Source: Tricharina praecox (Eukaryota). Taken from it: a stretch of DNA of 64,000 nt. Under the pieces are notes generated by a model. It saw nothing but the letters and a program-made list of their open reading frames with translations. It was not told where the DNA came from and searched no databases. The stretch is taken from contig NW_026250424.1 of the NCBI RefSeq assembly GCF_024521635.1, positions 310,001 to 374,000 on the forward strand, read 5' to 3'. This document shows, one piece after another, positions 14,401 to 62,100 of the stretch. The first letter of the stretch is position 1. Every line of letters begins with the position of its first letter. A program made the position numbers and the translations under genes.

Positions 14401-15126
14401 GAACTGGCCGACATCATCCTCCTCATCGCTTTCGTCCTCGAAGACGACTGCGACACCCTCTCGGTCGTCAATATCCTCATCACCACCGGCGCCATCCGCC
14501 TTGCCATCCATATCCTCATCTTCGTCTCCGGCGTTGTAATCAGTAATCTTCTTGGATAAAGTGACGAGGTCCGAGAACGTTTTGGAGTCCATCTTGTCGC
14601 CCAAGATATCCTCGATGCCCCTTTTCTTGTCGAAGTCCTTCTTCGATCCATCAGGATCCTTCAGTATCTCTAGGACTGCATCCGCTGCAGACCGCACGAC
14701 TGAGTGCGGCACATCGCCGAGAATTCCGGCCGTCAACGTCAGAATTAAGGAGTACGTCTCCCGTGTCGCTGCCGTACGGGGATGGTAGATCAGGTCCAAA
14801 ACATCATCGGTAGCCGACAATATGCTTTCACCGAAGCCTGCTGAGGCACCCTTTTTCCGCTTTCGCTTTTCCCGATCCAGAATCTCCCGGCCCTCGTCCA
14901 TTGCATCGAGATTGATTGTCCCGGCTTCCCGCTTCTTCTTCTTCGCCTTTTCCTTGGGCGCGGTATCGCGCAACACACGGCTACCCATCTCCTTGATGTC
15001 GACCTTGCCCGCAAGGGTCTCCGGATCACCGGTCGGCTCATCTGTACGGCGGCTGTAAAATCGCTTGTCCGGCTGAAGAACCAAGTTGGACATAGCGGCA
15101 TACTTGTACTGCGATTGGTCGGCCAT
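8447..15126 (-). CDS. BRR2: U5 snRNP Ski2-like RNA helicase Brr2
   Basis: ~2200 aa with two helicase cassettes (APTGSGKT, DEIH, SAT, QMLGRAGRPQ; second APSGSGKT, DDIH) and two Sec63 domains. One intron ~8973-9033 joins the final exon (8447 frame). Confidence 0.98.
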
Positions 15127-15900
15127 GATGGGCGATCGGAGCCTTCCGGGGGTCTTGGAAGAGCCTTAGAACGGCGGTCGAAAAGCGGAGGAGGGGATGA
15201 CGGGCGGGCGGATTGATGTGTCGGTAAGAGTGGCTGTAGGTAGATGGATGAGGATGAGACGTGAAGTCGGTTCGAAGAGTGGCGAGTGGGGCGTTCTGCG
15301 CGCCTTCAGGAGTGAGTTCAGGGTAGTTTGGGCAGAAGCTCGGCGACGTGACTACTGGGGTTAGAAAGTCCGTACGAGTCTGCAGAACGGAAGAAGTTTC
15401 GATGGGTATACCTTCAGTAATCCGTCTTCAACTAATTCCTTTCGTGGTTGAGGGTTGTGATGGCGGCAGTAGTGAAATGGTGTTGTGATATTGGGGACAA
15501 TCCGTTAGTTAACGACCCCATGCGACGCGAGGCGGGAATTTCTTGAGTCGACATCCTCGCTAACCCTACACCCTAACTTATCATACTCCATACTTTCGCC
15601 GTGGCCGTTGAAGTCACTACCCAGGTAAGTAATCGCAATTGAAACATCTCCGGAATCCCTTTGTCTCCCTCCTGTCTCTTCTATCTCTGGAGCTTGCTCC
15701 CACAACACAACCATCACCCCTCCTCCCGACACATACAGCCTACTCGACACAGCGCACGAACCCCGACGACAATAATCTTTGGACCTAGTTCTCTTCATTC
15801 GCTTGACAGAGAACTCCGCGTCAGGATTTCGTAGCGCGACTTCTCACGTGTTACATCGCACATTGCCAACAGCGCGATTACCACCGCCACCACCGCCAAT

Positions 15901-18028: not shown

Positions 18029-21000
18029 ATGGCGGCCGTCACCGAAACACAGCATGGCCGGGAGACTACATCGGAGCTTCAGAACGCGACAGAACCTTCC
18101 GCCACCTCTGTCGCGATAGACCCGGTTGCACTGGTCACCTCGGAATGCATCACTGTCACCTCCGCGATGCGCAAGAATGCGCGGTGGGCCCAGTCCTCGG
18201 TGGCTGCGATCCTTGGAGGCGGCGGAGGCTCGGGTTACGGTGGCACCAGCGGCGGCAGCGATTACACTCATGTTCCTGGAAACAATACCCCGGGACTGAC
18301 ACGTAAGGGGGCGGGCGGGATTGCACAGGTAGACGGTGATGCGGGGTTAGCTGGGAGGTGGGGCTTGCGCGGGAAGAAGGGAAAGAGCATACAGGACAAC
18401 CCTCTTATGGCTGCGTTCGCTAAGCTAAGGGGTGATTTGCAAGAGTGCAAAGGTCGGCCTTCTTCCCTTGGTTGTTGGATTTCTTGTGTTGCAGAGGTAC
18501 TGATTTGCGGGACGGAGCGATAGACATCACGACTTTCGACACCCCGAGCTTGCTACACCCATTTCTTCAGGTCATCAGATCTTCGTCGACGAGCGGTCCC
18601 ATAACTTCCCTCGCGCTCATCGCAATCACCAAGTTCTTCTCGTACAATCTGGTCAACCGAGCGTCTCCTCGGCTCCCGGTAGCCATGCAGCTCCTGTCGT
18701 CGGCGATCACACACTGCCGGTTTGAAGCGTCGGATTCCGCCCAAGACGAGGTAGTGCTGCTACGGATTTTGAAGCTGATGGAGATGATGCTTTCCGGGCC
18801 CGGCGGCGAGCTGCTGGGCGACGAGAGCGTCTGCGAAATGATGGAGACTGGGTTGAGCATGTGCTGTCAGATGCGACTTTCAGAGGTACTACGGAGGTCC
18901 GCCGAGATGACTATGGTTTGTATGTGCCAAGTGGTTTTTGAGAGGCTAAAACATCTTGAGCTGGAAGCCAATGCCGCGGGGGAGAATTTGGAGGAAGAAT
19001 CTAAAGATGAAATGGAGAGCGTCAAAATGGCGCCGTCGGCAGAGGGGGAACATGTGGTTACGACTCCAGAAGTGGAACGAACGTCAGACGACAAGGCGGT
19101 AGCAGACGGAATGACTATAGCACCGGCAGGCAGTAGTGGTGGTGCAGAGGGAGTCGCCGGGCAAGACGAGACGGAGGAGGCCCCAATAAAGCCTTACTCA
19201 TTACCATCTATCCGGGAGCTTCTCAGAGTGTTGGTGGAGCTTTTGGACCCGGATGATAAGACACATACGGACACCATGCGAGTGATGGCCATGAGGATAA
19301 TTGATGTCGCATTCGAGGTTGCTGGGCCTTCCATTGCCAAACACCCCAGCCTTGCGGATTTGGCTAGAGACAACCTTTGCCGGTATCTTTTCCAGCTTGT
19401 ACGTTCGGATACCATGACCATATTACAGGAGTCATTGAGAGTCATTCAAACATTACTGGCGACAACACGGGGAGTTTTAAAACTGCAACAGGAGTTGTTC
19501 TTAGCTTATCTGGTCGCCTGTCTCCACCCTCAGGTTGAGATACCGAGAGAACCAGGCGTTAACCCTTTGCTATACGAAGGCGTGCCGCAAGCACCGAAGG
19601 TGTCCAAGCCCCCTCCAACGCAGAACGGTAGCGGACGTTCGACTCCAGTGCCGGTGAAAGAGAGGCAGAAGCTTGGGCTTGAAGGCGGGTCGAGGAGGCC
19701 TGATGCACGCGAAGCCATGGTGGAGTGCGTGGGTGCATTGTCACGGATTCCGAGCTTCATGGTGGAACTCTACGTCAATTACGATTGCGATGTGGACCGT
19801 ACAGACCTTTGTGAGGATATAATCGGACTTCTATCACGGGTAATGGAATTCCCGCCTGCCATAAACATACTATGCTAATCCTCTATTCTCCAGAATGCAT
19901 TCCCTGATTCGGCAACCTGGAGTACTACCAATGTACCGCCTCTCTGTCTGGACGCGCTGTTGGGATACGTGAATTTCATCTATGAACGATTGAGCGACGC
20001 TCCGCGTACAGAAGGGTTCTCGGCACCCCAAAAGCTCCAGGATCAGAGGCAGCTCAAAGCAGTGGTTGTTCAGGGCATCAAGAAGTTCAACGAGGATCCC
20101 AAGAAGGGTATCATCTTCCTTGCCCAACAAGGCATCATTGAGGGTGTTGATCATCCGGAGTCGATCGCACGGTTCTTGAAAGGCACATCTCGGGCGGACA
20201 AGAAACTCCTGGGAGAGTACATCTCCAAGAAACAGAACACCGAGATTCTACGCGCGTTTATGAAAATGTTTGACTTTAGTGGCAAGCGAGTAGACCAGGC
20301 GCTGAGGGAGATGCTCGAGACCTTCCGGCTGCCAGGTGAATCTCAGCTGATTGAACGTATTGTCCTGGAGTTTTCGGAAAAGTACTGCGAGACCGAAGCG
20401 AATCTGAAGGATGTCGCGGATAAAGATGCCGTTTTCATTTTATCGTATGCTATTATTATGTTGAATACCGACCAGCACAATCCTAATATGAAGGTAAACA
20501 CGATTCTCCGAACTCAAAATAATGGCTGTTTTTGTTGCACTGGTATTGACAATGTCCTCAGAATGGCTCTCGGATGACGTTGGAACAATTCGGCCGCAAT
20601 CTGAGAGGCGTAAACAACGGCAAAGATTTCGCTCCCGAATACCTTCAGCTCATCTATGAAACGATCAAGCACCACGAGATCATCCTGCCCACCGAGCACG
20701 ACAACAAGCATGCCTTCGACTACGCCTGGAAGGAGTTGCTCCACAATGCTGACTCGGCCGGTGAGCTATCCATCTGCAACACCAACATCTACGATGCACA
20801 GATGTTCGCGGCCACTTGGAAACCGGTCGTTGCGACACTGAGCTATGTCTTCATGTCGGCCACCGATGATGCTGTCTTTGCAAGGGTGATCACAGGTTTC
20901 GATCAATGCGCCAGGATCGCGGCGAAGTACAAGATTACCGAGGCGCTCGACCACATCGTACGATGCCTGAGTACGATCAGTACACTGGGCACCGAGAACC

Positions 21001-23268
21001 CACCAAGCACCGCGCTGAACACGGAGATCCAAGTCAATGGCAACAGTGTCATGGTCAGCGAGCTCGCCGTTAAGTTTGGCCGGGACTTCAAGGCACAGCT
21101 GGGTACCGTCGTCCTATTCCGGGTGATTACTGGGAATGAAGGTGTCTTGCTCAACGGTTGGAATCATGTATGCTTCCCCTCTCCATAACATATCCTCCTG
21201 TACTTACGTTTTGCAGATTGTCCGAACATGGCTCAACTTGTTTGTGAATTCTTTGATCCCACCGTTCTTCTCGCCCTCCCAAAATGGACTGGACATTCCG
21301 CCCATTCAGCTTCAGACACCTTCCGTGGTGATAGATAGAGACCAATCGTCGAAAGACGTTGGTCTGTTCTCCACTCTTTCCTCGTATCTGTCGAGTTATG
21401 CCAGCGACGAGCCGCCAGAGCCTTCGGACGAGGAACTTGACAGTACATTATGCACCGTGGACTGCGTAAATGCATGCTTCCTAGGTGATGTATTTGCCAA
21501 TATCATGTTGGTTACTCGAATCATGCTGTGTAACAATTACTAACGATCTTTCAGGGAATTGGACTCTGCATCTCTTAAGCCACTCATCGATTCCCTCCTC
21601 CGGCAGATTCCAGACCTAGATGACGAGGACCCAGGGGTTGTCATCGTTAAGCCCGAGCATCCCTCCTCGCCATTGCTGAACGGAAATCCTATGTGGAAAG
21701 GACCCAAGTATGACCCAGCTTTGGTATACGTTCTGGAGTTTACGACATGCTTGGTTCTGCGAGATGCCGAGACCACGCTCGCTCACGGCAAAGCACTCGC
21801 TGAAACGCTCACGGCCATTGTCCGGAATGCTGCAAGGCTGCATCCACTCGTCGTTTCACGGTCGATCTACTACATGTTCTCTCTTCTTGAGCATAGCCAC
21901 GAACACTCTTTCCTCAGGGCACCCTTGGCTCTCCACTCCGTTGCTGCTCTAGACAGAACGCTTCTGGACAAATCCGCCCTGCCTGTGGCCAAGAGTCTTT
22001 CCAAATGCATCAAACGCACGTCGGCCCTCCGAAGTGAAATCATCAACTCTCCCGATCTATGGGTGGTTCTGCACGGGCTGCTGCACAACCGCGATGCCGT
22101 CGTCGACGTCTTCGAGATCCTGGACGTCATCATATCGGAACCGGTAACCAACGTGACTGCCGACAACTACGTTGCCGTAGTCTCGCTGCTGAACGACTTC
22201 GCATCGGAAGCCAACATCGGCGCCGCGTACGAGCAGCGGCAGGACAAATCCGCGCGCAAGGGCAAGCTGCAGAAGAAATCCACCGACTACCCCGGCGTCG
22301 AAATCGTCGCGCGCGGAACAAAGGCGCTAGCAATGATCTACTCCCTGCACACGCGCGTGCCCGCCCTCATCACGCAATCGCACCTTGAAAAGAACGAGGC
22401 GTGGACCGCCTACTGGCTGCCCATATTCCAGAGCCTCAGCACGCAGTGCACCAACCCGTGCCGCGAGATCCGACACCTATCCCTCGGGCTGCTGCGGCAG
22501 AGTCTGCTCGGCCCCGAAGTAACCAGCGACTCCTCGCACGGCGAGTGGACCGCCATCTTTGGCGACGTCCTGTTCCCGCTCATCGGGAGACTCCTAAAGC
22601 CGGAGGTGTTCCAGGCAGATCCCAGGGGAATGAGCGATACCAGGGTCCAGGCGGCTACGCTGCTCTGCAAGATCTTCCTACATTACCTCGTCCTGCTCAG
22701 CGAGTGGGAAGGAATGCTGGGGCTGTGGCTGCGCATCCTCGATATCATGGATAGGCTCATGAACAGCGGCCAGGGCGACCATTTGGTATATTCCTCCGCC
22801 CCCCCCCCTTCCCCCTTCCCCTCCTCCCCCTACCCCCAACGTCCCCCTGTTACACCCGCTAACAACCCCGCACAAAAATAGGAAGAAGCCGTCCCCGAAT
22901 CCCTCAAGAACATCCTACTGGTCATGGCGAGCGGCGGATTCCTGGAGCGTCCTTCACCCACCACCTCCACCACCAGCACCACCGCCACCGCAACCACAAC
23001 AGAAGCGGAGGCAGACGGCAAGTCGCAGCTGTGGGAGCAGACGTGGAAACGCCTGGAACGGTTCCTGCCCGATCTTAAGGAGGAGCTGTTTCCGCCGCTG
23101 CCGGAGTCGGTGTTTGTGCCCGAGCCTGTGGTGGTGGAGGAGCCTGTGAAGGAGCCTGTGCAGAAGGAGGGGGAGCCGGTGGCGGAGACGACGGTGGAGG
23201 GTGAAAAGACAGAGGGGGAGATGGAGGGTGAAAAGACCGAGGAGACGCTGGCGGCAGATATTGATTGA
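18029..23268 (+). CDS. GEA2: Golgi Sec7-domain Arf guanine-nucleotide exchange factor (GBF1/Gea1/Gea2 family)
   Basis: DCB domain (ITHCRFEASD), HUS box (LYVNYDCD), Sec7 motifs FRLPGESQLIERI and YAIIMLNTDQHN, and HDS region (EAVPESLKNILLVM). About 6 introns. Confidence 0.95.
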
Positions 23269-23840
23269 TTGCTTGTGTTTGACGGTTGATGTTTGATGTT
23301 TTTGGTGGTTGTCTATGTCGCGGTAATATATAGTACTAGACGAGTAATATCCGTGGAACTCATGAGATTGTTGTGTGGTTTGGTGTTGGTTGGTATTGAA
23401 GCATGCATTTGTCTGGTCTGGTTTAGTTACTACAATGTCTGTCTATTCCATAGAGTGGTTGAAGTTGAAGTCATTCGTTGCGTCCAAGCCAATACAGGTA
23501 CCTCTGCAATCACGTAGAGCAGCACCCAAATTCAATCAATCGCTCAATCAAGGACTCTCATAAACTGCGTTGACATGCATATACCCCACCCCAACCCAGT
23601 GCCCCCCCCCCATCCCCAATCCCCAATCCCCGACCTAACCAACCATCCAACCCCTTTCCCCACCGCCCGCCCGCCGCCCACCGAACCCAAACACGAAAAA
23701 CACAAAAGACGAAATAAAAAAATAATAGCCCCCTCAAAATTAAATTTCTGTCACAAAGGTTTGTTTTGTTTTTACCGAAGAAAGGAGGAAAAAAGAACGC
23801 CCCGCAACCAACCAAAAACAATCACCGCCTGTTTTTTCTT

Positions 23841-25332
23841 CTACATGATGATGGCAGGGACTGGAAGTAAAGTTAGCGGATGATGGCGAGACGGGTATGG
23901 GAAAGGAGAGCTTACTATCAATGTTTGCCTTGATGGTCTTGTGCGGCAGCACGCATCCTCCGTTCACGTACACCTCATCGGCCACTGTTACGTCGTCGCC
24001 GAGGACGGTGACATTCTCGAGGCGCGCCCACTTTCCGACGGTGCTGTTCCAGCCGACGATGGTGCTCTTGATCCACGCGTGGTCCTTGATCCTGCAGCCC
24101 TGAAGGACTACGCACCGCTGGAGCCTGACACCGTCGCCGACTACGACACCGGGACCGATGGTCACGTTGGGGCCGATGCGGCAGTTCTTGCCGATCTTCG
24201 CCGACGGGTCGATCAGGACGTTTCCACCGTGCACGTACGACTCAGACGATGGCGTGAGCAGCTTCGAGTTCTTCTTTGCCAGCGAGGAAAGGTACAGGCA
24301 GGTTCCGGTCAGGAAATCCTTGGGCTGTCCGACGTCCATCCAGAAGCCTTCCAGATCGAACGAGTGCAGTTGGCCGTCCTCGACGATAGCGGGGAAGGTC
24401 TCCTGCTCGATGGAGGTAGGACGGAGCTCGATGCGGTTGAGAACGCTGGGGTTCAGGATGTAGATACCGGCATTGATGCGGTTTCCGACGAACTCCACGG
24501 GCTTCTCAACGAAGCGGTCGATGCGCGATGCGTGTCCGGGCTTGTGCACCACGACTCCGTACTTTGACGGCTCGTCGACTTTGGTAACGACGATGGTACC
24601 CTCCTGTCCGTGGGACTTGTGGAATGCTGCTAGGTCCTCAAACGGGTACTCGCAGATCACGTCCGAGTTGAGGACGAAGAACGGAGTATCATCCTTTCCG
24701 AGGATCTCTTCGGCAAGCTTGAGGGGTCCGGCGGTGCCTAATGGCTCAGTCTCGACGGAGAAGGTAATCTTGACGCCGTATTGCTCCTCGTACTGTAGAA
24801 TCGATGCATCAGCTCAGCCCCCACCTACTAGTTCCCCGCAAAAGCTCGAAATAGAGTCGAGCTTGGCGATAGCACGTACCTTCTGCAACACATTGATCAT
24901 GACCTCCGGTCTGTAGTTGACGGCGAGCACAATGTCCTTGACACCGGCAGCGGCCAGCGCCTCGACCTGATGCAGGATCATCGGGCGGTTGCCGAATTCG
25001 ACCAATGGCTTGGGCAGGGTGAGGGTCTATTGAAGTGATGTTCAGCGGCCGAGTTCATTTTGATGCGATGGATTGAGCGATGCCCCGCAAGCGGAGCCGC
25101 ACATTTCCGTAGAGTTGCGACACGGTTTACGGGATGGAGAGGAGGAGGAGGGAAGACGGAAGATGGAGGGGTCGCATACAAGAGGCCTCAGGCGAGTACC
25201 GAAACCACCGACGAGAATAAGAGCTGTAGTCCACCACGCCAGCTGTCAGCCTCAACTCGGCATTCGCTCCGCGCATCCGCAACGGAGGGGGAAGCAACTG
25301 GCAGGTAGATGGAGAGGGAGCATACCCTTCAT
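23841..25332 (-). CDS. PSA1: Mannose-1-phosphate guanylyltransferase (GDP-mannose pyrophosphorylase, Psa1/Mpg1)
   Basis: Spliced start [54 protein letters not shown], hexapeptide repeats; ends VPAIIM*. Four introns. Confidence 0.97.
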
Positions 25333-33919: not shown

Positions 33920-35240
33920 CTACCCCGACTTGACCTCCTCCAGTTGCACAGTCGGCACCGTCGTTTTCGACTGTTTAGCCTCTAGCTCGACCTTCCTATT
34001 ATGTGTCAGTGACAAAGTAACAAAGCGGGGGACGATGGGTAGTAGTAAACTCACGCATACGCCGCGCCCCCAGCCAGGGTCAACAATATGCCCAGGCCAT
34101 TCAACCAGCCCACGGCGAGGCCCCAAAAGGCAATACTCAGGATAATCGTGAGGATCTGCTTAATATTCGCAGCGACGGTCATCGTAAGAGCACCCGTCTT
34201 CTTATTCGCGGTGAACGAGATGACATTGAGGGCGAACGCGAGGATTCCGTTTCCGGCAAGGATCATGACCTCCCTCCTGCCGATATTCTCGCCAGCGAAC
34301 TTCTGGACGGCGGCGATCTCGCCGGTGAAGTACGCGTACACCATGGTCTGCACGAACGCGAGCGGCGACATGCGGTACAGCAGCTCGAGCGGCGACAGCT
34401 TGAGCCGGCCCGTCTGGATCCGGTTCGTTACCACCGTCTTGAGCGCCGCCAGGAACGCCCCCAGAAGCGTCAGGATGAAACCCATCGGCGTGAAGTAGTA
34501 GTCCCCGGCGGTGGCGAAGCCGACGCCTGCTACCACCGGCAGCAACGAAGTGTACGTCGCCCGGCTGTACGTCTTGCCGAATCCCAAACGGTAGATTATC
34601 ACGGTGAAGAACGGCGTCATCGCGCGCACGATCTGGTGGAACGGGATCGTCACTAGGTGCCTACGCGCACATCCACCCATCCGTCTCCGGTCAGTTCGGT
34701 GAGGCCCCGCGTTCGTTAGGGGACGGGGGACGGGGGACGGGGGACGCACAGGGATACATTGCTGATAGCGATGTTGATAGTGTACAGCGTGGAGAACAGC
34801 AGCAGCGTGAGGTTCTCTCGGTCGGTGAGGCGCGTGAGCGTGAACGTTCCGCGGTAGTAGAAGAACATGCAACCGAGACTGCCACAGGCGGCATGGATGC
34901 CGGTGAGCAGGTACGGGAACGGGAACTGTGTGTGCGCCGCTACCTATCAGCTATCTACTACCTATATATCGTATACTATATAGCCGCACCCCTCCCTCCC
35001 GCTCCCGTGTCTCGGTGGCGGCGGCGGCGCGGCGGCGCGTGGGATATTATTATTCACCTTGCCCATGACGGCCTTGTTGTAGAGCGTCAACGCCAGGTTG
35101 AGGCTGAAGTATAGCGTCAGCCACGCATACTTTGTGCGGACCGAGTCCTGCTCCGTCGCAATGACTGACGCGCTGCGTCCGCGCGGGGGTAGCAGCAGCG
35201 TGTCTTTTTGTTGCTGCTGCTCCGACGATGACGACGCCAT
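33920..35240 (-). CDS. Triose-phosphate-transporter family (SLC35E-like, nucleotide-sugar-transporter-like) membrane protein
   Basis: YFSLNLALTLYNKAVMGKFPFPYLLTGIHA, LYTINIAISNVSLHLVTIPFHQIVRA, LAALKTVVTN, NKKTGALTMTVAANIKQ. Three introns. Confidence 0.9.
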
Positions 35241-42364: not shown

Positions 42365-45047
42365 ATGCGGATTACCTCGTGGATAGCATTGCTCCAGCTA
42401 GTGGCGGTGGAGCTATGCGGCGGCAGCAGCAGCAGCAACACACCACTCGCGCGACAGTACGATACGCGGGAGTACTACGCCGTGCACCTATCCCGCCATG
42501 CTACACCACACGACCTCGCCGGGCGGCTCGGGCTGGACTTCGAGGGGAAGATAGGGGAGCTCGACGACCACTACCTGTTCTCGGGGCCGAAGGGGGACGC
42601 CGACGTGATCGAACAGTACCAGCTGCGGCAGAAAGGAAAGCGGGATGCGAGCAGCGATGGGATCCTCTTCGCACAGAAACAGAAGCTGAAGCGCCTCGTG
42701 AAACGGATACCGCCGCCGCCGAGAGAGAAGAGGCTGGAAGACCGCGCGCAGGATAAGGGATTGGTGAGAGAGCTCGAGCATATCTCCAGCGCTCTGGATA
42801 TTCGCGATCCGATCTTTCATGAACAGTGGCACTTGTTCAATACCGTGGAGCAGGGCCACGACGTGAATGTTACCGGTTTGTGGTTGGAGGGCATCACCGG
42901 GCACGGATCGACGGTCGCGATCGTCGATGACGGCCTGGACATGTACAGTGATGACCTGAAGGATAACTACGTTAGTCCCCCGTCCCGCGTCCCCCGTCCC
43001 GTTGAGCTTGGCTGATCGGGATACAGTTCGCAAAAGGTTCGTATGACTTCAACGACCAAACCGCGGAACCGAGACCCCGCCTTAGTGACGATCGACATGG
43101 TACTCGGTGCGCGGGAGAGATCGCGGCGGTGCGGAACAACGTCTGCGGTGTCGGCGTTGCCTACGATGCCAAAGTAGCGGGTATCCGCATCCTGTCGAAA
43201 CAAATCTCCGACGCCGACGAAGCAGTCGCTTTGAACTATGCCTACCAGGATAATCAGATCTACTCGTGTAGTTGGGGACCGCCGGACGACGGCAAGTCTA
43301 TGGAGGCGCCGGGAATCTTGATCAAGAAGGCGATCTTGAAGGGTATCAACCAAGGCCGGGGCGGGCTGGGGTCGATCTTTGTGTTTGCGTCCGGGAATGG
43401 TGCTGCCAATGGCGATAACTGCAACTTCGACGGGTACACCAACAGCATCTACAGTATCACTGTTGGAGCCGTGGACCGTAAAGGGAATCACCCATATTAC
43501 TCGGAACACTGCTCGGCGCAGATGGTGGTCACCTACAGCAGTGGTAGCGGCGATGCGATCCACACGACCGACGTTGGCACCAACAAGTGTTACTCCGGCC
43601 ACGGCGGCACATCTGCTGCCGCCCCACTGGCGGCGGGCATCTTCGCTCTCGTCCTGTCGGTACGGCCCGAGCTCACATGGCGAGACCTGCAGTACCTGTC
43701 GATGGACACAGCGGTGCCCATCAACGTGGACGACGGGATGTGGGAGAAGACAGCGCTCGGCAAGCTGTACAGCCACCGGTATGGCTACGGCAAGCTCGAT
43801 GCCTACGCCATCGTGCAGGCGGCCAAGACGTTCAAGCTTGTCAAGCCGCAGACATGGTACAAATCGCCGGTGGTGCTCGCGAACCACGAGATCCCGCAGG
43901 GCCAGAAGGGACTGCGCAGCGAGATCGAAATCACCGAGCAGCACATCAAGGACGCCAATGTCGCGCGGCTCGAGCACGTGCAGGTGCGCATGAACGCTGT
44001 GCACGGCCGCCGTGGTGACTTGAGCGTCGACCTCATCTCGCCGAACGGCGTCGTCAGCCACATCGCGACGAAGCGGGATCTCGATAACAGCGCGCAGGGG
44101 TACGAGAACTGGGACTTCATGACCGTCAAGCACTGGGGCGAGGACGGCATCGGGAAATGGGCCATCATCATCAGGGACACCCAGGAGAACGAGTACAACG
44201 GCACGCTTGTCGACTGGAGCATCACGCTGTGGGGCGAGGCGATCAATGCCGACCTGGCCGAGCCCCATCCCCTACCGGGAGAGGAAAACAAGCTGCCTGC
44301 TTCGCACACGACCAGCGCGCTTCACACTACGACCGACCTGCCCAGCGAATTCCCCACAGACCATGCCGCCGCCACCGGCAATCCAACCGACCACCTGCAC
44401 CGGCCGGTGAACTCCAAGCCCGGCAGCAGCAACGGCGCGCAAGGAACCCCGACCGACAACGGTCAGTCCCGCACCCCCCACTCCACTTACACACAGCATA
44501 CTCACCCCCCGCAGCCGCATCCCCCTCATCTAGCTCTACTACCGCCGAAGACTCCACCAGCAGCGACTCAGCTGCCTACCTCCCCTCGTTCCTGCCCACC
44601 TTCGGCGTCTCAGCCAAGACGCAAGCATGGATGTACGGCGCGATCATCGTGATCGCGCTCTTCATCGGCGCAGTAGCAGTATACCTTCTCAAGCAGCGGC
44701 GCAAAGCGCAGGCGCGCGAGGACGGCATGAACTACGAGTTCGAGGCGCTCGGCGACGCCGATCTCGAGGAGGGCGGTGGGCGCTCCCGCGGCGGCAGCGG
44801 CGGCGGCGGCGGCCAGACCACTGGTGCTGCTGCAGGCGGCAGAAGAAAGGCCCGTGACCTCTATGATGCCTTTGGCGCTAGTGATGATGAGGAGGAGCTC
44901 TTCAGCGATGATAACGATGAGGATGGGGATGAGGATGCGGAGGCTAGCGAGAAGGAGGATTATTATGATCATGATGCTGCTAGGGGCATCGATGAGAGCG
45001 GCAAGGGTGAGGATAGGCAGAAGCTGCTGGGGAGGGAGAATCGGTGA
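42365..45047 (+). CDS. KEX2: Kexin (Kex2) subtilisin-like proprotein convertase
   Basis: Signal peptide, prodomain ending in KR sites, catalytic VDDG / HGTRCAGEI / ASGNG / GGTSAAAP, P domain, Ser/Thr stalk, TM helix, tail with YEF and DLYDAF. Introns ~42971-43027 and ~44462-44513. Confidence 0.97.
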
Positions 45048-45681: not shown

Positions 45682-46741
45682 GATCCGGCCCGAAAGAGGC
45701 GGAGGAAGAGCACTCTACTTTACCATGACAGTTAATGGCATGGGGGAGTGAGGCTGAGTGAGCATCTTCGGAGAATCGGAGGATCAGAGAATCAGAGAAT
45801 CAGGGTACTCAAGTCACGGCCCGATGCGATACGATGCGATCGGGGCGGGGAAATGTGTGTTGGCCCTTGGGCCATGAGCTTCCGTACGGGCGCCTTCGAA
45901 TGTTGACCGGTAATTATGCCAGCGATGCGGCAGGCTTGCTGTGGTGCGGAACCTCATCGGTGGCAGATAGGAAGCCGGGAAGCCGAGCGGCTGCCGTGGT
46001 GCGTTACCGCCGAAACGTGGGAGCGGGGAGCGGGCTCTCTCTCTCTCTCTCTCTCTCTCTCCGTCACTCGGGGATGACTTGGACCTCAGCAGTGGTAACT
46101 ACGTCATTGTACCTAGTATGCTCCACCGCTCACTACCGTTCGATACTGGCACTCTGGAGTCTTGTTGTGGCCGTCGTTGGTACCGGCGGTTGGTACTGTT
46201 TCTACTCACTATCTCTGGTCCAGTACGGTGCTGGCCAGGACCCTCAACGGAGAGATATCGCAGTGGTTTGGCGTGCTGTGGTTAGGCGTGCCGTTCTCCA
46301 CCGGTCTCCATCGTTTGATACCAGCATCAATGTGTCCTACCAGAGCTGATTCTGTTGGCGGACGGACAATTCACGAGGCCGAACGCCGTCCAGCTGCCGG
46401 ATATTCAAGAAAACCACAGACTAACCTTCCTTTAATGCAGTTCAGTTCAGTTCAGTTCTACCTATCGACCTCGATATTACTCCCCGGCAGCCAGACATAA
46501 ATAAACCTACGTACCGGCACATGGCACGACCGAGTGCTGAGCCCTGACGCCTCGGTCGGCGGTCGCTGACATTGTCATCAAGCCTCCAGACTCCAGACTC
46601 TCGAGCTTAGCGCGCGTCCGGCGCCGCGGCAGCGTCAAGGGCCGTTACCAACTTACCATGTTTCGGCCACCTCTATGTAGGTAATATAGATAGAGTACCT
46701 ACAAGGACTGTTTCCGTCCTTCGCACGAGCGAGCGCCTCGG

Positions 46742-46825
46742 CTTTCTCTTTCTCTTTCTCTTTCTCTTTCCCTTTCCCTTTCTCTTTCTCTCTCTCTTTC
46801 TCTTTCTCTTTCTCTTTCTCTTTCT
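46742..46825. repeat. (CTTTCT)n polypyrimidine microsatellite
   Basis: Direct reading. Confidence 0.9.
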
Positions 46826-48365
46826 TTTTTTATCCGTGTCTGTGTCTGTCTGTGTCTGTGTTGCGCGCAGGGCCCAGAGCTGGCTGGCGGACTGGCCCCT
46901 GCGTAAGTCTGGATGCCGTCTGATTCCATAATCACCATCCCATCCCACAACGCAACCACTGTCGGCTCCGGTCTCTGTGGTCGGTTGCTGTGGTGTGGAG
47001 TACATATACTACGTGCAGATTGGGGATGGGGGGCTGGATGGAGAGGAGGCACACACCGGCATACATGGAGTAGATAGATACGTAGCATGCCTACATACGA
47101 GCACAGTACACGGCACACAGTACACAGGTACTCTATGGACGGGGGTGCTTCGGGAGGATCTAGGTATCATTACACGTAGAGTAGAGTAGAGTACAGAGAG
47201 ATGGCATGGATGGCATGGATGGCATGGATACAAGTGGGCGGATACCTAGATCTCACTTACATACCGTCCCCCGAGCAGCCGACATCCGGTGGGATGGGGA
47301 GGTTGGGTTGGGTGCTCGCTCAGTCCTCCATGTACTCCAGAGATACCTGGGTAGGTAGCTGCTTGGTGATGCTGGTGATGCTGGAGCAGCCGGTAACTCG
47401 GGACGGCCAGAGGGTTGAGCCGATGGGTTGGATCATAGCTGGAGCTGTGGAGGTGCAGTGGAGGTGCAGTACCTATCGGATCATGGCTGGCTGGCTCGAG
47501 CTGCTAACAAACTCTCTGTCTCTCCGTCTCTCCCAGTGCCACGTTACACGCCGCCCAGTCTGCGTCTAGTGGTGGTGTCTACATCATCTTGCACCGACTC
47601 GGTCGATCCTATCGAAGGAGTCGCGATCGGGTTGGGTCACCGTGCATGTGCGTGTCGAGAAAGGAAGGCTGTAGAATGGCAGAGCAAAGGTGGTGGAGTA
47701 CCGGTACCTACTTCTCAGGTACTCTAGACGTGTAGAGTGCCCAAACATATTGTAGACATCGCCATCGCCATCGCTTCGCCGTGCTGTGCGGAATCTCCAA
47801 CAGCCATCTCGCATCCGTACAGACGCCTCGGAAAGGTCCATCGACTCTCTCTCCCTTCTCATGTGATCAAGTCAGCACTTACTTAGCCGTCGTGATCTCC
47901 TCCGAACTTTGATCGGTTCCTGTGCTGTCCACTAGCGTCCGACCCCCCCGGCCGTCCGCTTTTGTCAGGATCTGAGCCCTTCAACGCCTCTATCGTCCCC
48001 TCTGCCGCTCCCCAAGTTCCAGCCCGACCCACTATCACATCAGCAACTTTTCTTCGCCTTTGTTCCGTCCGCTTCCCCCCTGCTTCCTCAGACCCTACCC
48101 CTCAACCCCCCCAACACTTCTCTTCTTCTCCTCGCAACCTGCTTCCATCCTATAAATCATCCCCCCCGCGTCCCGGCGTCCATCCTATTATCGACATTCC
48201 ATCCTACCCGAAAAAAATCTAGCAACCACGTTTTCCTCCCGCTTCTTCAGATTTGCTCCTCTCCGGCCGTTGCTGGGAATCGCCTTTACCGCCTCGTCCG
48301 CAGTCCCCCTCCGACCGCCGTCTCCGTCTTCTCTGCATCCTAGCCTGCAAAAACAGAGCCGCAAC

Positions 48366-49616
48366 ATGCACAGCAAAGTAGTCAGTGAGTGCTCCCCAAT
48401 CTCCCGTGGTCGTGTTGCTTCCTGGTTGGTTGTCTGCCTGTTTCGTTGCTAACGGATGGTCGCTCCGGATAGTTATTGGGTACTATGCGCAACCCCGCTA
48501 TCGTGACACCGTTCCCCTCACTAATGCCTCAACAGGTCTGGCCCCGCCGCCCACACCGCTGCGGTGTACCTGGCCCGTGCCGAACTGAAACGTGAGTTCC
48601 GAACCGCTCTGCTCGGCTGGGAGAAATAATGGAGCAGTCATTGACACCACCGTACAGCGGTCCTCTACGAGGGTATGCTCGCGAACGGAATCGCCGCCGG
48701 CGGTCAATTGACGACCACCACCGACGTCGAGAATTTCCCTGGCTTCCCCAACGGAATTGGCGGACAAGAGCTCATGGTACGCACACCCGCCCATCACCGG
48801 CGTCGATCGAAAGGAACTGCCCTGACTCTGGTGGATTAGGAAAACATGAGGGCCCAGAGCGAGAGGTTCGGAACCGAGATCATCACCGAGACGGTCTCCA
48901 AGCTCGACCTGTCCGACCGGCCGTTCAAGTACTGGATCGAAGGTGAGGAGAGCGGCGCGCCCAACACCGCCGACACTGTCATCCTGGCTACCGGCGCGTC
49001 GGCGAGACGGTTGGGTCTGCTCGGAGAGGAGACCTACTGGCAGGCGGGAATCAGTGCTTGTGCCGTGTGCGACGGCGCCGTTCCCATCTTCAGGAACAAG
49101 CCGTTGGCGGTCATCGGAGGTGGCGACTCGGCGGCGGAGGAGGCCATCTTCTTGACCAAGTACGGCAGCAAGGTGACCGTGCTGGTGCGTAAAGACAAGC
49201 TCAGGGCGTCCAACATCATGGCTAAGCGTCTCTCGGCCCACCCCAAGGTCGAGATCAAGTACAACACCGTGGCGGAGGAGTGCTTGGGCAACGGAAAGCT
49301 CTTGGGCACGCTCAAGATCAAGAATGTCGTCACTGGCGAGATTGAGGAGATGGATGCCAACGGACTGTTCTACGCCGTAGGACACGAGCCGGCCACATCG
49401 CTCGTCAAGGGACAGGTCCAGTGTGACGAGGAGGGCTACATCATCACCCAGCCCGGAACTTCGTATACCAACATCAAGGGAGTGTTCGCCGCCGGCGACG
49501 TGCAGGACAAGCGGTATAGACAGGCCATCACCAGCGCAGGATCCGGATGCATTGCTGCTTTGGAGTGCGAGCGGCTTCTGGCCGAGGAGGAGGAGGACGA
49601 GGCTGTGCCAGTGTAA
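48366..49616 (+). CDS. TRR1: Low-molecular-weight thioredoxin reductase
   Basis: Spliced [49 protein letters not shown], redox motif [29 protein letters not shown]. Four introns. Confidence 0.98.
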
Positions 49617-50907
49617 GTGTGATCCAGACCGTCATGGGTGTGCTCAAAACTAACGTCGACCTTGTCATCTCTACAGAGTCGAAGCAGAGAAGAGCGTGAC
49701 CAATGGTGTTGCCCCGGAATACAAGTCCAACCCCATGATCTAATCTAAATGACACGGCTTTCTTCTTCTTGTTCATTGTGTTTCTTGTTATGTTTTATTC
49801 TGGCTTGGGAGTTGCTTTTCGATGGTGTTGATTAAAAGAACGAAAGGGATTTGAAGGAAGGGGAAGAAGCGTGTGGGCAAACTTGTAATTATTTTCGGCC
49901 CCCTGTTTCTTCCTCTTTTTTTCCTTCCTTCCTTCCTCTTTTCGTTTTGGGTTCCTTTTCGGGCTGGGTTATGCGGTTTTCCTTTTTCCTTTTTTCCCTT
50001 TCCGTTTCGTTTCGTTTCTGCGGTCTTTTTGGTAAAACATAGAGCGCATGGTATGGTATGCTTAGAAAGTGTGGAAGTGTCGAGGTGTGGATGTTAGAAT
50101 GTGGTGTCAATTGGAGATTTCTCTGGTACAGTACTATTTTCCGAATCTGTGGAGAGAAATTCGTGAGAAATTCGTGATGAGAAAGGCATGTGTGCATGAT
50201 GCGATGAGCATCGAGACTCGGGTTTTATTTTTTGTTGGCCAGTACAGTACCTCTGTCCATCTGCAGATCAAAACTCCAAGACTCGAGAAAGAGAGAGAAT
50301 GATGCGATGTACCTATGCGTCTTCGCCACCCTCATCAAGACTCGACCGGGGGAGGGGGCCATCAACGATTAAGGGACATTGCGGGTGATATCGAGTGAAC
50401 CGGCCAAAGCCGCACGAGTGCTCGAGTGCTCGGTTGTGTTCAGCCTCAACCGACTACCTACGGTACATAAAATGCCCGCACGAAGCAGAACCCATATATA
50501 AACAGCTAAAACTTCAAGGGCGCATTCGAACTGTGGATCTAGCTGGATAAGGTCGCTTCTGGAGTTCTAATGGAGGAAGAGGATAGAGGAGGAAAAGAAA
50601 GCACTTCTCTATGTATTTGGAATTGCAACCAATGGCGCCTGCCAAGCCTACATCCCTCAGAGTCAGGCAGGGCCAGGTTCGAGTTTAAGCACCAATTGCT
50701 ACTCTGGAGTAAATAGCCTCTAGTTAACTTACTGGTGAACCCACACTCTTCTTTACCACCTACACACCCACGCACCACACCTCACCACACACCCTACAAC
50801 CACACACGACACCTCACCTCACCAACAGCACCTACATACCTCCACCACCACCACCACCACCACCACAACCCGCACACGCCACGACCCACGACAAAAACTC
50901 GCGCACC

Positions 50908-57516: not shown

Positions 57517-58613
57517 ATGACCGAAATCAAGAACGTAACCGTGGTCGGCGTAAGTTCACTCCCAACCATCAGTCTAGTTAGCTCCCTTACTGTGCCAAAT
57601 TTCGTACTGACGGTTCCCAGGGCACTGGCAATCTCGGCCGGAAAATAGTTAGCACCCTCCTCGCCGCAAACCTCAACGTCACGATCCTCTCCCGCGCCAC
57701 CACCACCCCACCAGCAGAACTCTCTCCAGATATCAAATTCCTCACGGCGGACTTCACCTCCATCTCCTCGCTTGCCGCCGCCCTCAAGCAAGCATCCACC
57801 GACGCCGTCGTCAGCGCCGTCGGGATAGCCGGGGTACCCGGGCAGACGCTTCTGATCGAGGCGGCCCTAGCGGCCGGCGTGGCCCGTTTCGTGCCGAGCG
57901 AGTTCGCGAATGCGCCTGTGACGATGCGCCGAGCGGGGGCGGGAGAAGGGCTGGCGGAGCTCGCGTATGCGCGGGAACCGAAGAGCGCGATAATGGAGTA
58001 TCTGATCCGGCGATGCGACGAGAGCGGCGGCGCCATGAGCTGGAGCGCGGTGGCCACAGGGAACTTCTTCGACTATGCGCTCAGGAAGTTTCCCAACGGC
58101 ATGGGCTTCAACGTCAAGGAGAGGACCGCGGTGCTGATCGACTCCGGCGCGGAACCGTTCACCGGCACGACGCTGGCTGGAATCGCGGACTCCGTCCTCG
58201 GCATCCTGCTCCACCCGCAGGAGACCTGCAATAAGTACTTGAGGGTAAGGTCGGTCGAGACTACGCAGGCGGAAATCTTGAGGGCGTTTGAGGATGTGAC
58301 GGGGGTGAAATGGAAGGTCGAGCACCAAAACGGGCAGGAGCTGCTGGATAGGGCGAGAGGAAAGCTGGAAAGGGGAGAGGGGGCCACATTGGATTTGGTC
58401 AGGGTGCAGTTGTTTATGGAGGGTGCGGGGAGGAGTGTGTTGGTGAGGAGAGGGGAGGGTGACAACGAGTTGCTCGGGGTGAAGGAAGAGGATGTGACGG
58501 AGGTGGTGAGGGCGGTGGTGGCGGATGTTGAGTTGCTCAGGGTGAAGGAAGAGGATGTGATGGAGGCGATGAGGGCGGTGGTGGCGGATGCTGAGGCTGC
58601 CCAGGCCGATTAG
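57517..58613 (+). CDS. NmrA-like / isoflavone-reductase-family NAD(P)-binding protein
   Basis: KNVTVVG|GTGNLGRKIV Rossmann motif across intron 57550-57620; DAVVSAVG, LIEAALAAGVARFVPSEF, TGNFFD. Confidence 0.9.
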
Positions 58614-60170: not shown

Positions 60171-62100
60171 ATGAACTGTCCGACACGAGATACGAATCCC
60201 TATGATTTGGAAGGTAGTTTGGCGTGCTCACCACCCCTTTTGCGAAAAAGAACGCCGTTGACGAACCCAACAACAAACATGAAGGCCACAATCAAAACCC
60301 ACCTCTCTTCCCACCGGAGCTCACTACGCGGTCGTCTCTCGTATGTTTATTCCGAATCCTTGCGCTTCGCACGAACGCGCGCACGCATGGCATCTGTTTC
60401 CGACGAGCCAATGCTGCACTGCGCAGGGCTGAGATTCCTGCTTGTGAATAGGTTTGCGGCGGAAAGACAGATGGCGTGTACAACCTACCGTTACACGTTC
60501 TTGCTCTGTTCATTATACTGGCAGTGTCGGTATTAGGCATGTACTCTCAGTCTGGCGGTGGGAGTGGTGGTGGATGTGGCGGTGGTTGTAGAGGGTACTG
60601 ACTGCCGACAGCCTGTTCGTTCCCGTTAGTCGTCAAGAAAGCACCGCAGCTCAGGGTCCCGCATTACTTCCTGTGAGCGCGCATACTCTCCCCAGTCCGC
60701 ATATGCCGTTACTGACAGCTTCCAGGTTCCTCTCGAGACAGTAATTAGCCTCTTCCTCCGCCCCGACCCGAACGAAACCTCCGCTACCCAACTAGAGAGA
60801 TCGTCCTGTTGACGTAAAGATAGCTTCGGTACCGGTGTTCTGATTGCTACCGCCTTCGTGCACGTGCGCTACCCTCCCCTGGTCTCTCGTCTCGTGCGAT
60901 TCTGACACCACTACAGCTCCTACCAACCGCGTTCACATCCCTCACGGATCCATGTCTCCCCAAGTTCTGGAACGAAGGCTACCCCGCGATGGCCGGCCTC
61001 ATCGCCATGGCCTCGGTCTTCGTCGTCGTATCGATCGAGATGTTCTTCTCCACCATGAACGGCGGCGCTATGGGTGGCTGTCACGGCGGCCCCAGTGCCG
61101 GTTACGAAGTCCTCACTCCCACCACAGCGTCCTTCGGCCACAGACGCGGCGCCAGCAGCGCCAGTGCGGCAAGCTTCACGAACGGAGGAAGAAACCCGCC
61201 CAGTGAGGCCATTCGACCGGTACGCCGAACCCGCAGGAGCAACAGCATAGGAAGCCAGTTGCAGAGGATCGAGCTCAGCGCGGATGTCTTGCAATACGAC
61301 GAGGCCTGCTCTGATGGGGAGGATTCGCCTGATCCCGAGGCGCATCACAAGAGCGACTATGAAGACGACGATGCCGACTCGGATGACGCTAACGAGGTCA
61401 CGGAGTTGAGGTCTCTGAATTCGAATGGCCAGAAGATGTCAACGAGTGCGGGTCATACGAGGAGGCCTGGCGGTGGAAGGCTGACGGAGGAGCAGCAACA
61501 AAAGAAGAACCTGTTGCAGGTTATGCTGTTAGAGGCGGGGATTTTGTTCCATAGTGTTTTTATTGGTATATCCAATCTCGATAATGCCGCCTTCTCCTTG
61601 CCGCGACTAACTTCCTCCTAGGAATGGCATTATCGGTTGCTACCGGATCGAATTTTATAGTCCTCTTGATTGCGATCACCTTTCACCGTACGTACGCCTT
61701 GTCCGCACTCCCTCCATTCCAGGACTGACTCCCAGTAGAAACATTCGAAGGCCTGGCACTGGGCTCACGCATCGCCGGTATCACCGCCTTCGCCAAGGAC
61801 TCTCCCAAGCCGTGGCTCATGTGTCTCGCCTACGGCACCACGACGCCAATCGGTCAGGCCATCGGCCTACTGACCAGAAACCTCTACGACCCAGCAAGCC
61901 AGACCGGTCTACTCATGGTCGGCGTCATGAACGCCATCTCCTCCGGCCTGCTCTTGTTTGCAGGACTGGTGGAGCTTCTGGCAGAGGACTTCTTGAGTGA
62001 CGAGAGCTATGTGATACTTACAGGGAAGCGGAGGCTTCAGGCTTGTGCGGCGGTTGCGGCGGGCGCAGCCGGTATGGCGCTGGTTGGCGCGTGGGCTTGA
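60171..62100 (+). CDS. ZIP-family zinc/iron transporter, ~9 exons
   Basis: Spliced MNCPTR...NQNPPLFPPELTT...YNLPLHVLALFIIL...RHFGTGVLIATAFVHLLPTAF...LEAGILFHSVFIG...FHQTFEGLALG...GLVELLAEDF...GAWA*. Confidence 0.92.

Follow-up and report, generated by a model that had tools for sequence, protein, structure and literature searches.

A conserved in-frame extension upstream of the thioredoxin reductase gene of Tricharina praecox, a candidate mitochondrial presequence with a putative near-cognate start

Introduction

Yeast ALA1 and GRS1 both give rise to mitochondrial isoforms that are started at near-cognate codons, which are ACG in ALA1 and UUG in GRS1. Here, we report the analysis of a possible case of this kind, the low-Mr NADPH thioredoxin reductase (TrxR) gene TRR1 of Tricharina praecox (Pezizales). 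The gene is located in one 64,000-nucleotide stretch of DNA, which is referred to as the window (assembly GCF_024521635.1, contig NW_026250424.1, positions 310,001 to 374,000 of the forward strand); all coordinates below are counted from its first letter. Upstream of the annotated start codon the frame of the gene stays open, and it spans a 46-codon extension that may be translated from one ACG codon and may act as a mitochondrial presequence.

Near-cognate initiation has been described for fungal tRNA synthetases. The accessible text of PMC7049704 reports near-cognate starts of alanyl-tRNA synthetase in yeasts, an ACG start of leucyl-tRNA synthetase in Cryptococcus, and swaps between weak AUG and near-cognate codons in dual-localised fungal tRNA synthetases. 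According to the accessible text of PMC5368413, Gpx3/Hyr1 of S. cerevisiae has an 18-residue non-AUG extension, for which ACG is one candidate start; this extension is sufficient for mitochondrial targeting.

Thioredoxin reductases have been described in both one-gene and two-gene arrangements. Monteuuis et al. 2019 (PMC6582344) name S. cerevisiae Trr1 as one of the proteins that gain a mitochondrial targeting signal through a non-AUG N-terminal extension; Trr1 was also detected in mitochondrial fractions. One review (PMC8061763) states that yeast Trr1 has no presequence and that its route of entry into the intermembrane space is unknown. TRR2 is the mitochondrial thioredoxin reductase of S. 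cerevisiae (as cited in the accessible parts of PMC6416177 and PMC6382746). K. lactis possesses one bona fide TRR gene, KlTRR1; its product has a 29-residue presequence predicted by MitoProt, and activity was present in both cell fractions (PMC2754438). One TrxR gene has been reported in each of Botrytis, Magnaporthe, Alternaria and Sclerotinia (PMC6382746), and papers on plant-pathogenic ascomycetes call the product of the single gene cytosolic (PMC6416177, PMC6382746). With a single TrxR gene in several Pezizomycotina, the mitochondrial supply of the enzyme is therefore unexplained. Our literature search found no published description of a non-AUG mitochondrial thioredoxin reductase isoform in a filamentous fungus, and the accessible portions of Ivanov 2017 (main text, supplementary files) and Wallace 2020 do not mention thioredoxin reductase.

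Results

The upstream frame and the candidate start codon

The TRR1 gene occupies positions 48366-49743 of the plus strand. Its annotated protein begins with MHSKVV, and the main ATG (48366-48368) is in the context CGCAAC-ATG-C, with A at -3. The upstream frame is open for 70 codons; the first in-frame stop is TAA 48153-48155, which is located inside a TATAAAT. ACG 48228 shares the frame of ATG 48366, and the sequence between the two codons is free of stops in this frame and of ATG; past TATAAAT, no earlier in-frame near-cognate codon has a purine at -3. The resulting extension is 46 codons in length; it contains 5 Arg, 1 Lys and no Asp or Glu, and one of the Arg residues is at -2 of the Met. 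The region 47900-48365 is devoid of ATG in every frame. The lack is mild, as 2.9 ATGs are expected over these 466 nucleotides (P(0)=0.047) and 1.5 between the TATA and the main ATG (P(0)=0.21). The preliminary description of the locus had listed ACG 48228 in GCAACC-ACG, TATAAAT at 48151, the absence of an intervening AUG, the addition of 46 residues with 5 Arg, 1 Lys and no acidic residue, and Arg at -2; direct reading of the sequence confirmed all of them. The features of the upstream region are as follows.

48151..48157, plus strand: TATAAAT, possible TATA box (putative role; motif read directly)
48225..48299, plus strand: 25-codon block TTFSSRFFRFAPLRPLLGIAFTASS, proposed targeting core of the presequence; identical to P0122 at 16/25 and to P0124 at 19/25 positions, no gaps
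48228..48230, plus strand: ACG, candidate near-cognate start, in GCAACC-ACG-T with A at -3 and T at +4
48261..48275, plus strand: L-R-P-L-L, a hydrophobic-x-x-hydrophobic-hydrophobic motif; the sole such motif per extension, at residues 12-16 (LRPLL, LRPLL and LRSLL in the three sequences compared)
48300..48356, plus strand: variable Ser/Pro-rich in-frame linker; identical to P0122 at 5/19 and to P0124 at 2/19 positions, with length differences that preserve the frame
48357..48365, plus strand: S-R-N just before the Met, with Arg at -2; SRN, SRA and KRN in the three sequences

Orthologous leaders in two relatives

P0122 and P0124, with which the extension is compared above, came from one HMMER search, in which the 76-residue leader plus exon 1 read-through (48156-48383) was used as query against 1.84 billion representative proteins. 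Four matches were obtained at E<=0.001, including P0122 (200 residues, E=1.6e-6) and P0124 (189 residues, E=1.8e-4). Both are genomic open reading frames of the stop-to-stop type, which run from the leader through MHSKV[VA] and a translated GTGAG donor into intron 1; the read-through of P0124 extends into the microexon region (IVIGY). Since they read leader, MHSKV[VA], donor and intron in succession, P0122 and P0124 can serve as proxies for orthologous leaders. The other two of the four matches, P0121 and P0123, are repeat proteins of ~1500 residues without MHSKV; they were rejected, since each has a repeated unit like F-x-x-R-F-x-R-L-G that is taken to match by chance.

In pairwise BLASTP, the window leader matched the two relatives with E=4e-15 and 6e-13. 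The 25-codon block is 64% identical to P0122 and 76% identical to P0124. Conservation begins at Thr-Thr, encoded by ACC-ACG in the window; in the translations, the residue at the ACG is Thr in 3/3 sequences, following Thr, and Ala or Ser. From this conserved Thr to the Met, the three sequences have 46, 47 and 49 codons, and 2/2 relatives are free of stops and in-frame Met. By our own estimate, which assumes a non-coding leader, independent indels that preserve the frame with a chance of 1/3 per relative, and the stop rate of shuffled sequence, the chance that both relatives retain the frame and stay stop-free is ~4%.

Intron 1 diverges directly past the donor in the alignment with P0122 and P0124. 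As a yardstick, the out-of-frame reading of P0124 in and around exon 3 matches the window in 17/40 residues (43%), which by simulation corresponds to ~20% nucleotide divergence in a real exon. Under a non-coding model, the identity of the block needs only ~12% (P0124) or ~19% (P0122) nucleotide divergence in the same kind of simulation. If it is non-coding, the block therefore needs a nucleotide conservation that equals or exceeds that of a coding exon.

Between TATAAAT and the ACG, CCATCC occurs twice (about 48180 and 48199), and the aligned residues of P0122 and P0124 read P/D-S-I-N. This suggests a conserved nucleotide motif in the area, which may mark the start of transcription or, in P0122 and P0124, act as a TATA-like element.

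Layout of the extension

The Arg residues at block positions 6, 9 and 14 are invariant in the three sequences. The three extensions are 46-49 residues in length and contain 6-7 Lys or Arg and 0-1 Asp or Glu, so that charge, length and composition agree in 3/3 with a matrix presequence, which typically has 20-60 residues, a net positive charge, hardly any acidic residues and much Ser, Thr, Leu, Arg and Ala. The hydrophobic-x-x-hydrophobic-hydrophobic pattern is the one described for Tom20 binding, and sites cleaved by the mitochondrial processing peptidase (MPP) typically have Arg as position -2 or -3. The Tom20-type motif and the Arg at -2 are both present in 3/3 extensions. This Arg could be part of an MPP R-2 site, or merely belong to the Kozak context of the main AUG. 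The patchy conservation, which is high in the block, low in the linker and lost in intron 1, is what would be expected of a presequence. Taken together, the aligned translations lead us to regard a constrained, in-frame, presequence-like extension as real in the three species.

A two-start model

We propose that a near-cognate-started mitochondrial presequence lets one gene serve two compartments, and give this reading a probability of about 0.5. In this model, a near-cognate codon, most likely ACG 48228 with its A at -3, would capture a minority of the scanning ribosomes, which would produce the presequence-bearing enzyme; the majority would pass it by and initiate at AUG 48366, giving the cytosolic enzyme. 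The basic and hydrophobic head with three invariant Arg and L-R-P-L-L, the variable Ser/Pro-rich spacer and the Arg at -2 would together constitute a matrix-type mitochondrial presequence, and cleavage adjoining the Met would release the identical mature enzyme. We infer that the ACG lies within the mRNA and is used as initiation codon, and that the extension is translated, drives import and is cleaved.

The reductase gene model and its surroundings

The gene in the window is of the single-copy low-Mr thioredoxin reductase type. Its spliced six-exon model gives P0001, a 346-residue protein of T. praecox, with 100% identity, and all introns are of the GT..AG type. The protein contains the CAVC and GSGPAA motifs of low-Mr TRR, and its matches, annotated as thioredoxin reductase, contain the domains PF07992 and PF00070. 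The exons are as follows.

48366..48384, plus strand: exon 1, with the annotated start codon, MHSKVV plus 1 nucleotide, followed by a GTGAGT donor
48473..48479, plus strand: exon 2, a 7-nucleotide microexon (TTATTGG), required for the VVIIGSGPAA flavin adenine dinucleotide (FAD)-binding motif
48536..48591, plus strand: exon 3, from the gene model
48658..48776, plus strand: exon 4, from the gene model
48840..49612, plus strand: exon 5, the main reductase body with the CAVC active site, from the gene model and the match to P0001; PF07992 and PF00070 on the matches
49677..49743, plus strand: exon 6, with the stop TAA at 49741-49743, from the gene model

The microexon is conserved, as its flanks read IVIGY in the window and P0124 alike. 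The gene models of P0005 (Wilcoxina) and P0043 (Tuber aestivum) appear to omit it and thereby to lose the first Gly of the FAD motif, which is probably mis-annotation. The C-termini of P0043 (367 residues) and P0018 (Tuber borchii, 351 residues) deviate from the ...SGCIAALE...EAEKS...PEYKSNPMI of the window and the other Pezizales; they look like products of a last intron that was retained or mis-spliced in the annotation.

The ~3-kb stretch upstream of the reductase is gene-poor and contains the simple repeats (CTTTCT) x14.7 and (CT) x13.5, at 46742-46829 and 46035-46061, respectively; read on the minus strand, these repeats yield long open reading frames with translations of the KR/ER type. 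Downstream, the first exon of the next gene seems to begin with MSSGVDAKLL at about 50905. Just upstream of that gene, at 50757-50870, there is an ACC/CAC-rich repeat (ACC x11 plus CA-rich units of 17-25 nucleotides), which reads poly-His, poly-Thr or poly-Pro, depending on the frame. Other genes of the window, named by Pfam on long open reading frames, are listed below.

3072-5429, minus strand: UNC45/She4-like protein
8563-15165, minus strand: Brr2/SNRNP200 spliceosomal helicase
18436-22881, plus strand: GBF1/Gea-type Sec7 ARF-GEF
23740-24813, minus strand: GDP-mannose pyrophosphorylase
34051-34950, minus strand: TPT-family sugar-phosphate or nucleotide-sugar transporter
43006-44652, plus strand: Kex2-like proprotein convertase
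57582-58613, plus strand: NmrA-like protein
60824-61621, plus strand: ZIP zinc transporter

Chance expectation and coding signal

Several observations weigh against the two-start model. The 486 upstream nucleotides are 43% C, and for such a C-rich leader an open frame and a basic, acid-free make-up are both near chance. Of 20000 shuffles of the upstream 300 nucleotides, 41% left a frame of 46 or more codons open and 25% one of 70 or more; when the 138 nucleotides of the extension were shuffled 20000 times, at least 6 Lys or Arg together with no Asp or Glu were found in 616 of the 8214 stop-free shuffles (7.5%). The remaining two frames and the promoter yield similar Pro/Ser/Arg-rich peptides. 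The amphipathic moment is ordinary: the maximum in an 11-residue window is 0.53, compared to a shuffle mean of 0.46 (standard deviation 0.13), and it is reached by 30% of the shuffles. The extension contains 7 prolines, 2 of them inside the head, and is a poor fit to an ideal helix. The presequence-like composition and the open frame, which had been put forward as arguments for the extension, are thus correct as facts, but 7.5% and 41% of the shuffles, respectively, match them; the extension stands out from chance because it is conserved in relatives.

Codon usage points in the same direction. The log-likelihood model, trained on the long exons of the window, tells the frames apart even in real exons of 18-39 codons (in frame, about -5.7 bits per codon; out of frame, about -6.2); overall, the in-frame scores of real exons are -5.5 to -5.7. 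The three frames of the extension score -6.01, -5.98 and -6.10 bits per codon, giving no coding signal by this measure. The GC content at third codon positions is 0.65 in the extension, compared to 0.82 in exon 5.

The start context is mixed as well. According to the accessible text of Ivanov 2017 (PMC5487733), A at -3 and G at +4 are the most important context positions. The context of ACG 48228, which had been called strong, has the A at -3 but T instead of G at +4.

The comparison with relatives also has points on this side. With P0122, the in-frame alignment also includes the 17 residues that precede the ACG; therefore, either the conservation is partly non-coding or the start is elsewhere. 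The relatives are two in number and known as protein read-throughs, a form in which neither the codon at the ACG position nor the synonymous and non-synonymous pattern is visible. In word-based searches, a 70-residue leader query against longer proteins gave 155 candidates, none with E<=10; for a 76-residue query, proteins of similar length yielded a single candidate and no match. An ESM Atlas look-up returned no usable match. Among the 19 homologues compared, which are the closest and longest of 120 listed and thus a biased sample, 7/7 Pezizales proteins are annotated from MHSKVV. The block is pyrimidine-rich and lies 74-148 nucleotides past TATAAAT, and it would belong to the core promoter if the transcription start were further downstream. 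In Fusarium graminearum, FgTRR fused to green fluorescent protein (GFP) and expressed from the native promoter was uniformly cytoplasmic, although a minor pool would be masked (PMC6416177).

Alternative explanations

The most serious alternative to the two-start model is that the region is an ordinary non-coding 5' leader or core promoter, an explanation that we find quite possible. The block would then be a nucleotide element (a pyrimidine-rich CT box, a start region or an untranslated leader element), the peptide would be a by-product of C/T-rich sequence, and initiation at the ACG would be noise. It agrees with an open frame (P=0.41) and a basic, acid-free make-up (7.5%) that are both near chance, with the codon usage, which gives no coding signal, and with the alignment of the pre-ACG region with P0122. 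It also agrees with the distance of the block from TATAAAT, which is a plausible place for a start region, with the MHSKVV start annotated throughout the Pezizales proteins compared, and with the cytoplasmic FgTRR-GFP (PMC6416177). However, a non-coding leader does not readily explain why the frame is retained across length changes in 2/2 relatives, despite a linker with 2-5/19 identities, and its block would need nucleotide conservation equal to or above that of a real exon. The three invariant Arg, L-R-x-L-L and the Arg at -2 form a coherent presequence layout, which also counts against this alternative. A leader element acting through RNA structure is also unsupported, since no unusual structure was found in 48190-48380 (minimum free energy z=+1.2; 180/200 shuffles fold at least as well) and an Rfam scan of 47900-48600 matched no family.

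We consider it improbable that the extension is translated but has another role, as a weak signal peptide of the endoplasmic reticulum type (a basic n-region plus LLGIAFTASSA), as an intermembrane-space or membrane-anchor signal, or as a stability or regulatory tag. The end of the block is moderately hydrophobic (maximum Kyte-Doolittle mean over 10 residues, 1.6-2.1) and is followed by small residues, and yeast Trr1 has been reported in the intermembrane space with an import route that is unknown (PMC8061763). The hydrophobic core, however, is short and broken by Gly, Thr and Ser, and three spaced Arg together with a long Ser/Pro spacer are more typical of a presequence. Thioredoxin reductase is also not known to have a secretory role. 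Still less probable, and in our view very unlikely, is that the block is the 3' end of an intron in the 5' untranslated region, formed by a pyrimidine tract and the acceptor-like TTCAG at 48246-48250, or that it is joined to an unseen upstream AUG exon. CTTCTTCAG at 48242-48250 does resemble an acceptor, and the Arg codon that follows it is AGA. Splicing to this TTCAG, which would remove the ACG, had been named in the preliminary description as a finding that would overturn its proposal; neither a GTRNGT donor nor a CTRAY branch site for such an acceptor is present in 47800-48365. Moreover, no ATG occurs in 47900-48365, conservation before the putative acceptor (TTFS.R) equals that after it, and the annotated model has no such exon.

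Discussion

The proposal that one gene supplies both cytosolic and mitochondrial TrxR by leaky scanning is strengthened by the in-frame conservation of the block in 2/2 relatives, but it gains nothing from codon usage. The check for a conserved open frame in relatives, which the preliminary description had named, came out positive in both orthologous leader fragments found, which contain no stops or frameshifts. Its further claim, that annotation would miss the extension, goes somewhat too far, as S. cerevisiae Trr1 is already given as a non-AUG extended mitochondrial candidate in PMC6582344.

If the two-start model is true, it would explain mitochondrial thioredoxin reduction in fungi with a single TrxR and would add one isoform that is invisible to gene callers. 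Should the block turn out to be a conserved element of the core promoter or leader, the interest is narrower. A wider proposal, which we consider doubtful, is that the block is an old fungal TRR presequence whose start has alternated in the course of fungal evolution, being now AUG and now near-cognate. The mitochondrial TrxR of Pezizales, and possibly of most Pezizomycotina with a single TrxR, would then be an unannotated ACG-started isoform of the 'cytosolic' gene, with start-codon strength determining how much enzyme goes to mitochondria and how much to the cytosol. Read-through open reading frame fragments in large protein collections can be used as proxies for leader DNA, and this use is applicable to further candidate extensions.

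Comparison with known systems

AUG-started basic extensions directly before the same N-terminus are found in 3/19 homologues: P0053 (66 residues, 10 Lys or Arg, no Asp or Glu), P0073 (46 residues) and P0099 (35 residues). Like KlTRR1 and these three proteins, the T. praecox locus combines one TRR gene with a basic extension before the conserved N-terminus, and the lengths are similar (35-66 residues). P0053 and P0099 have an internal Met at the same place as the main Met of the window. Different from the window, the extensions of KlTRR1, P0053, P0073 and P0099 are AUG-started and annotated. In Smith-Waterman comparisons against shuffles, the window extension and the extensions of P0053, P0073 and P0099 gave P<0.04 in 4/9 pairs and P>0.4 in 5/9; BLASTP against P0073 gave E=2e-4, in an alignment that includes the true N-terminus. 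As the similarity is weak and mixed, homology to these AUG-started extensions was not counted.

The S. cerevisiae Trr1 'MT-NTE' candidate is the same enzyme, likewise with a non-AUG extension predicted to add mitochondrial targeting (accessible part of PMC6582344). According to the same part of that paper, the yeast extension is predicted by software, whereas in T. praecox the block is conserved in relatives, and the lineage is one of filamentous ascomycetes for which single TrxR genes have been reported. Also different from this lineage, S. cerevisiae has TRR2 as a separate mitochondrial paralogue. TRR2 is likewise a mitochondrial thioredoxin reductase, but it represents a two-gene solution in place of two starts on one gene.

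Like the dual-localised tRNA synthetases, the window gene is proposed to use leaky scanning past a near-cognate codon, so that presequence-bearing and cytosolic isoforms would come from one mRNA. The tRNA synthetase isoforms are backed by experiment or profiling, whereas translation of the window extension is proposed from sequence. Gpx3/Hyr1, as far as the accessible text of PMC5368413 describes it, also acts in thiol-redox chemistry and has a short non-AUG extension upstream; unlike that of the window, its extension is shorter, directed to the intermembrane space and reporter-tested. If true, the T. praecox extension would therefore add to a known class, in which the yeast Trr1 candidate and the AUG-started KlTRR1 presequence have already been described.

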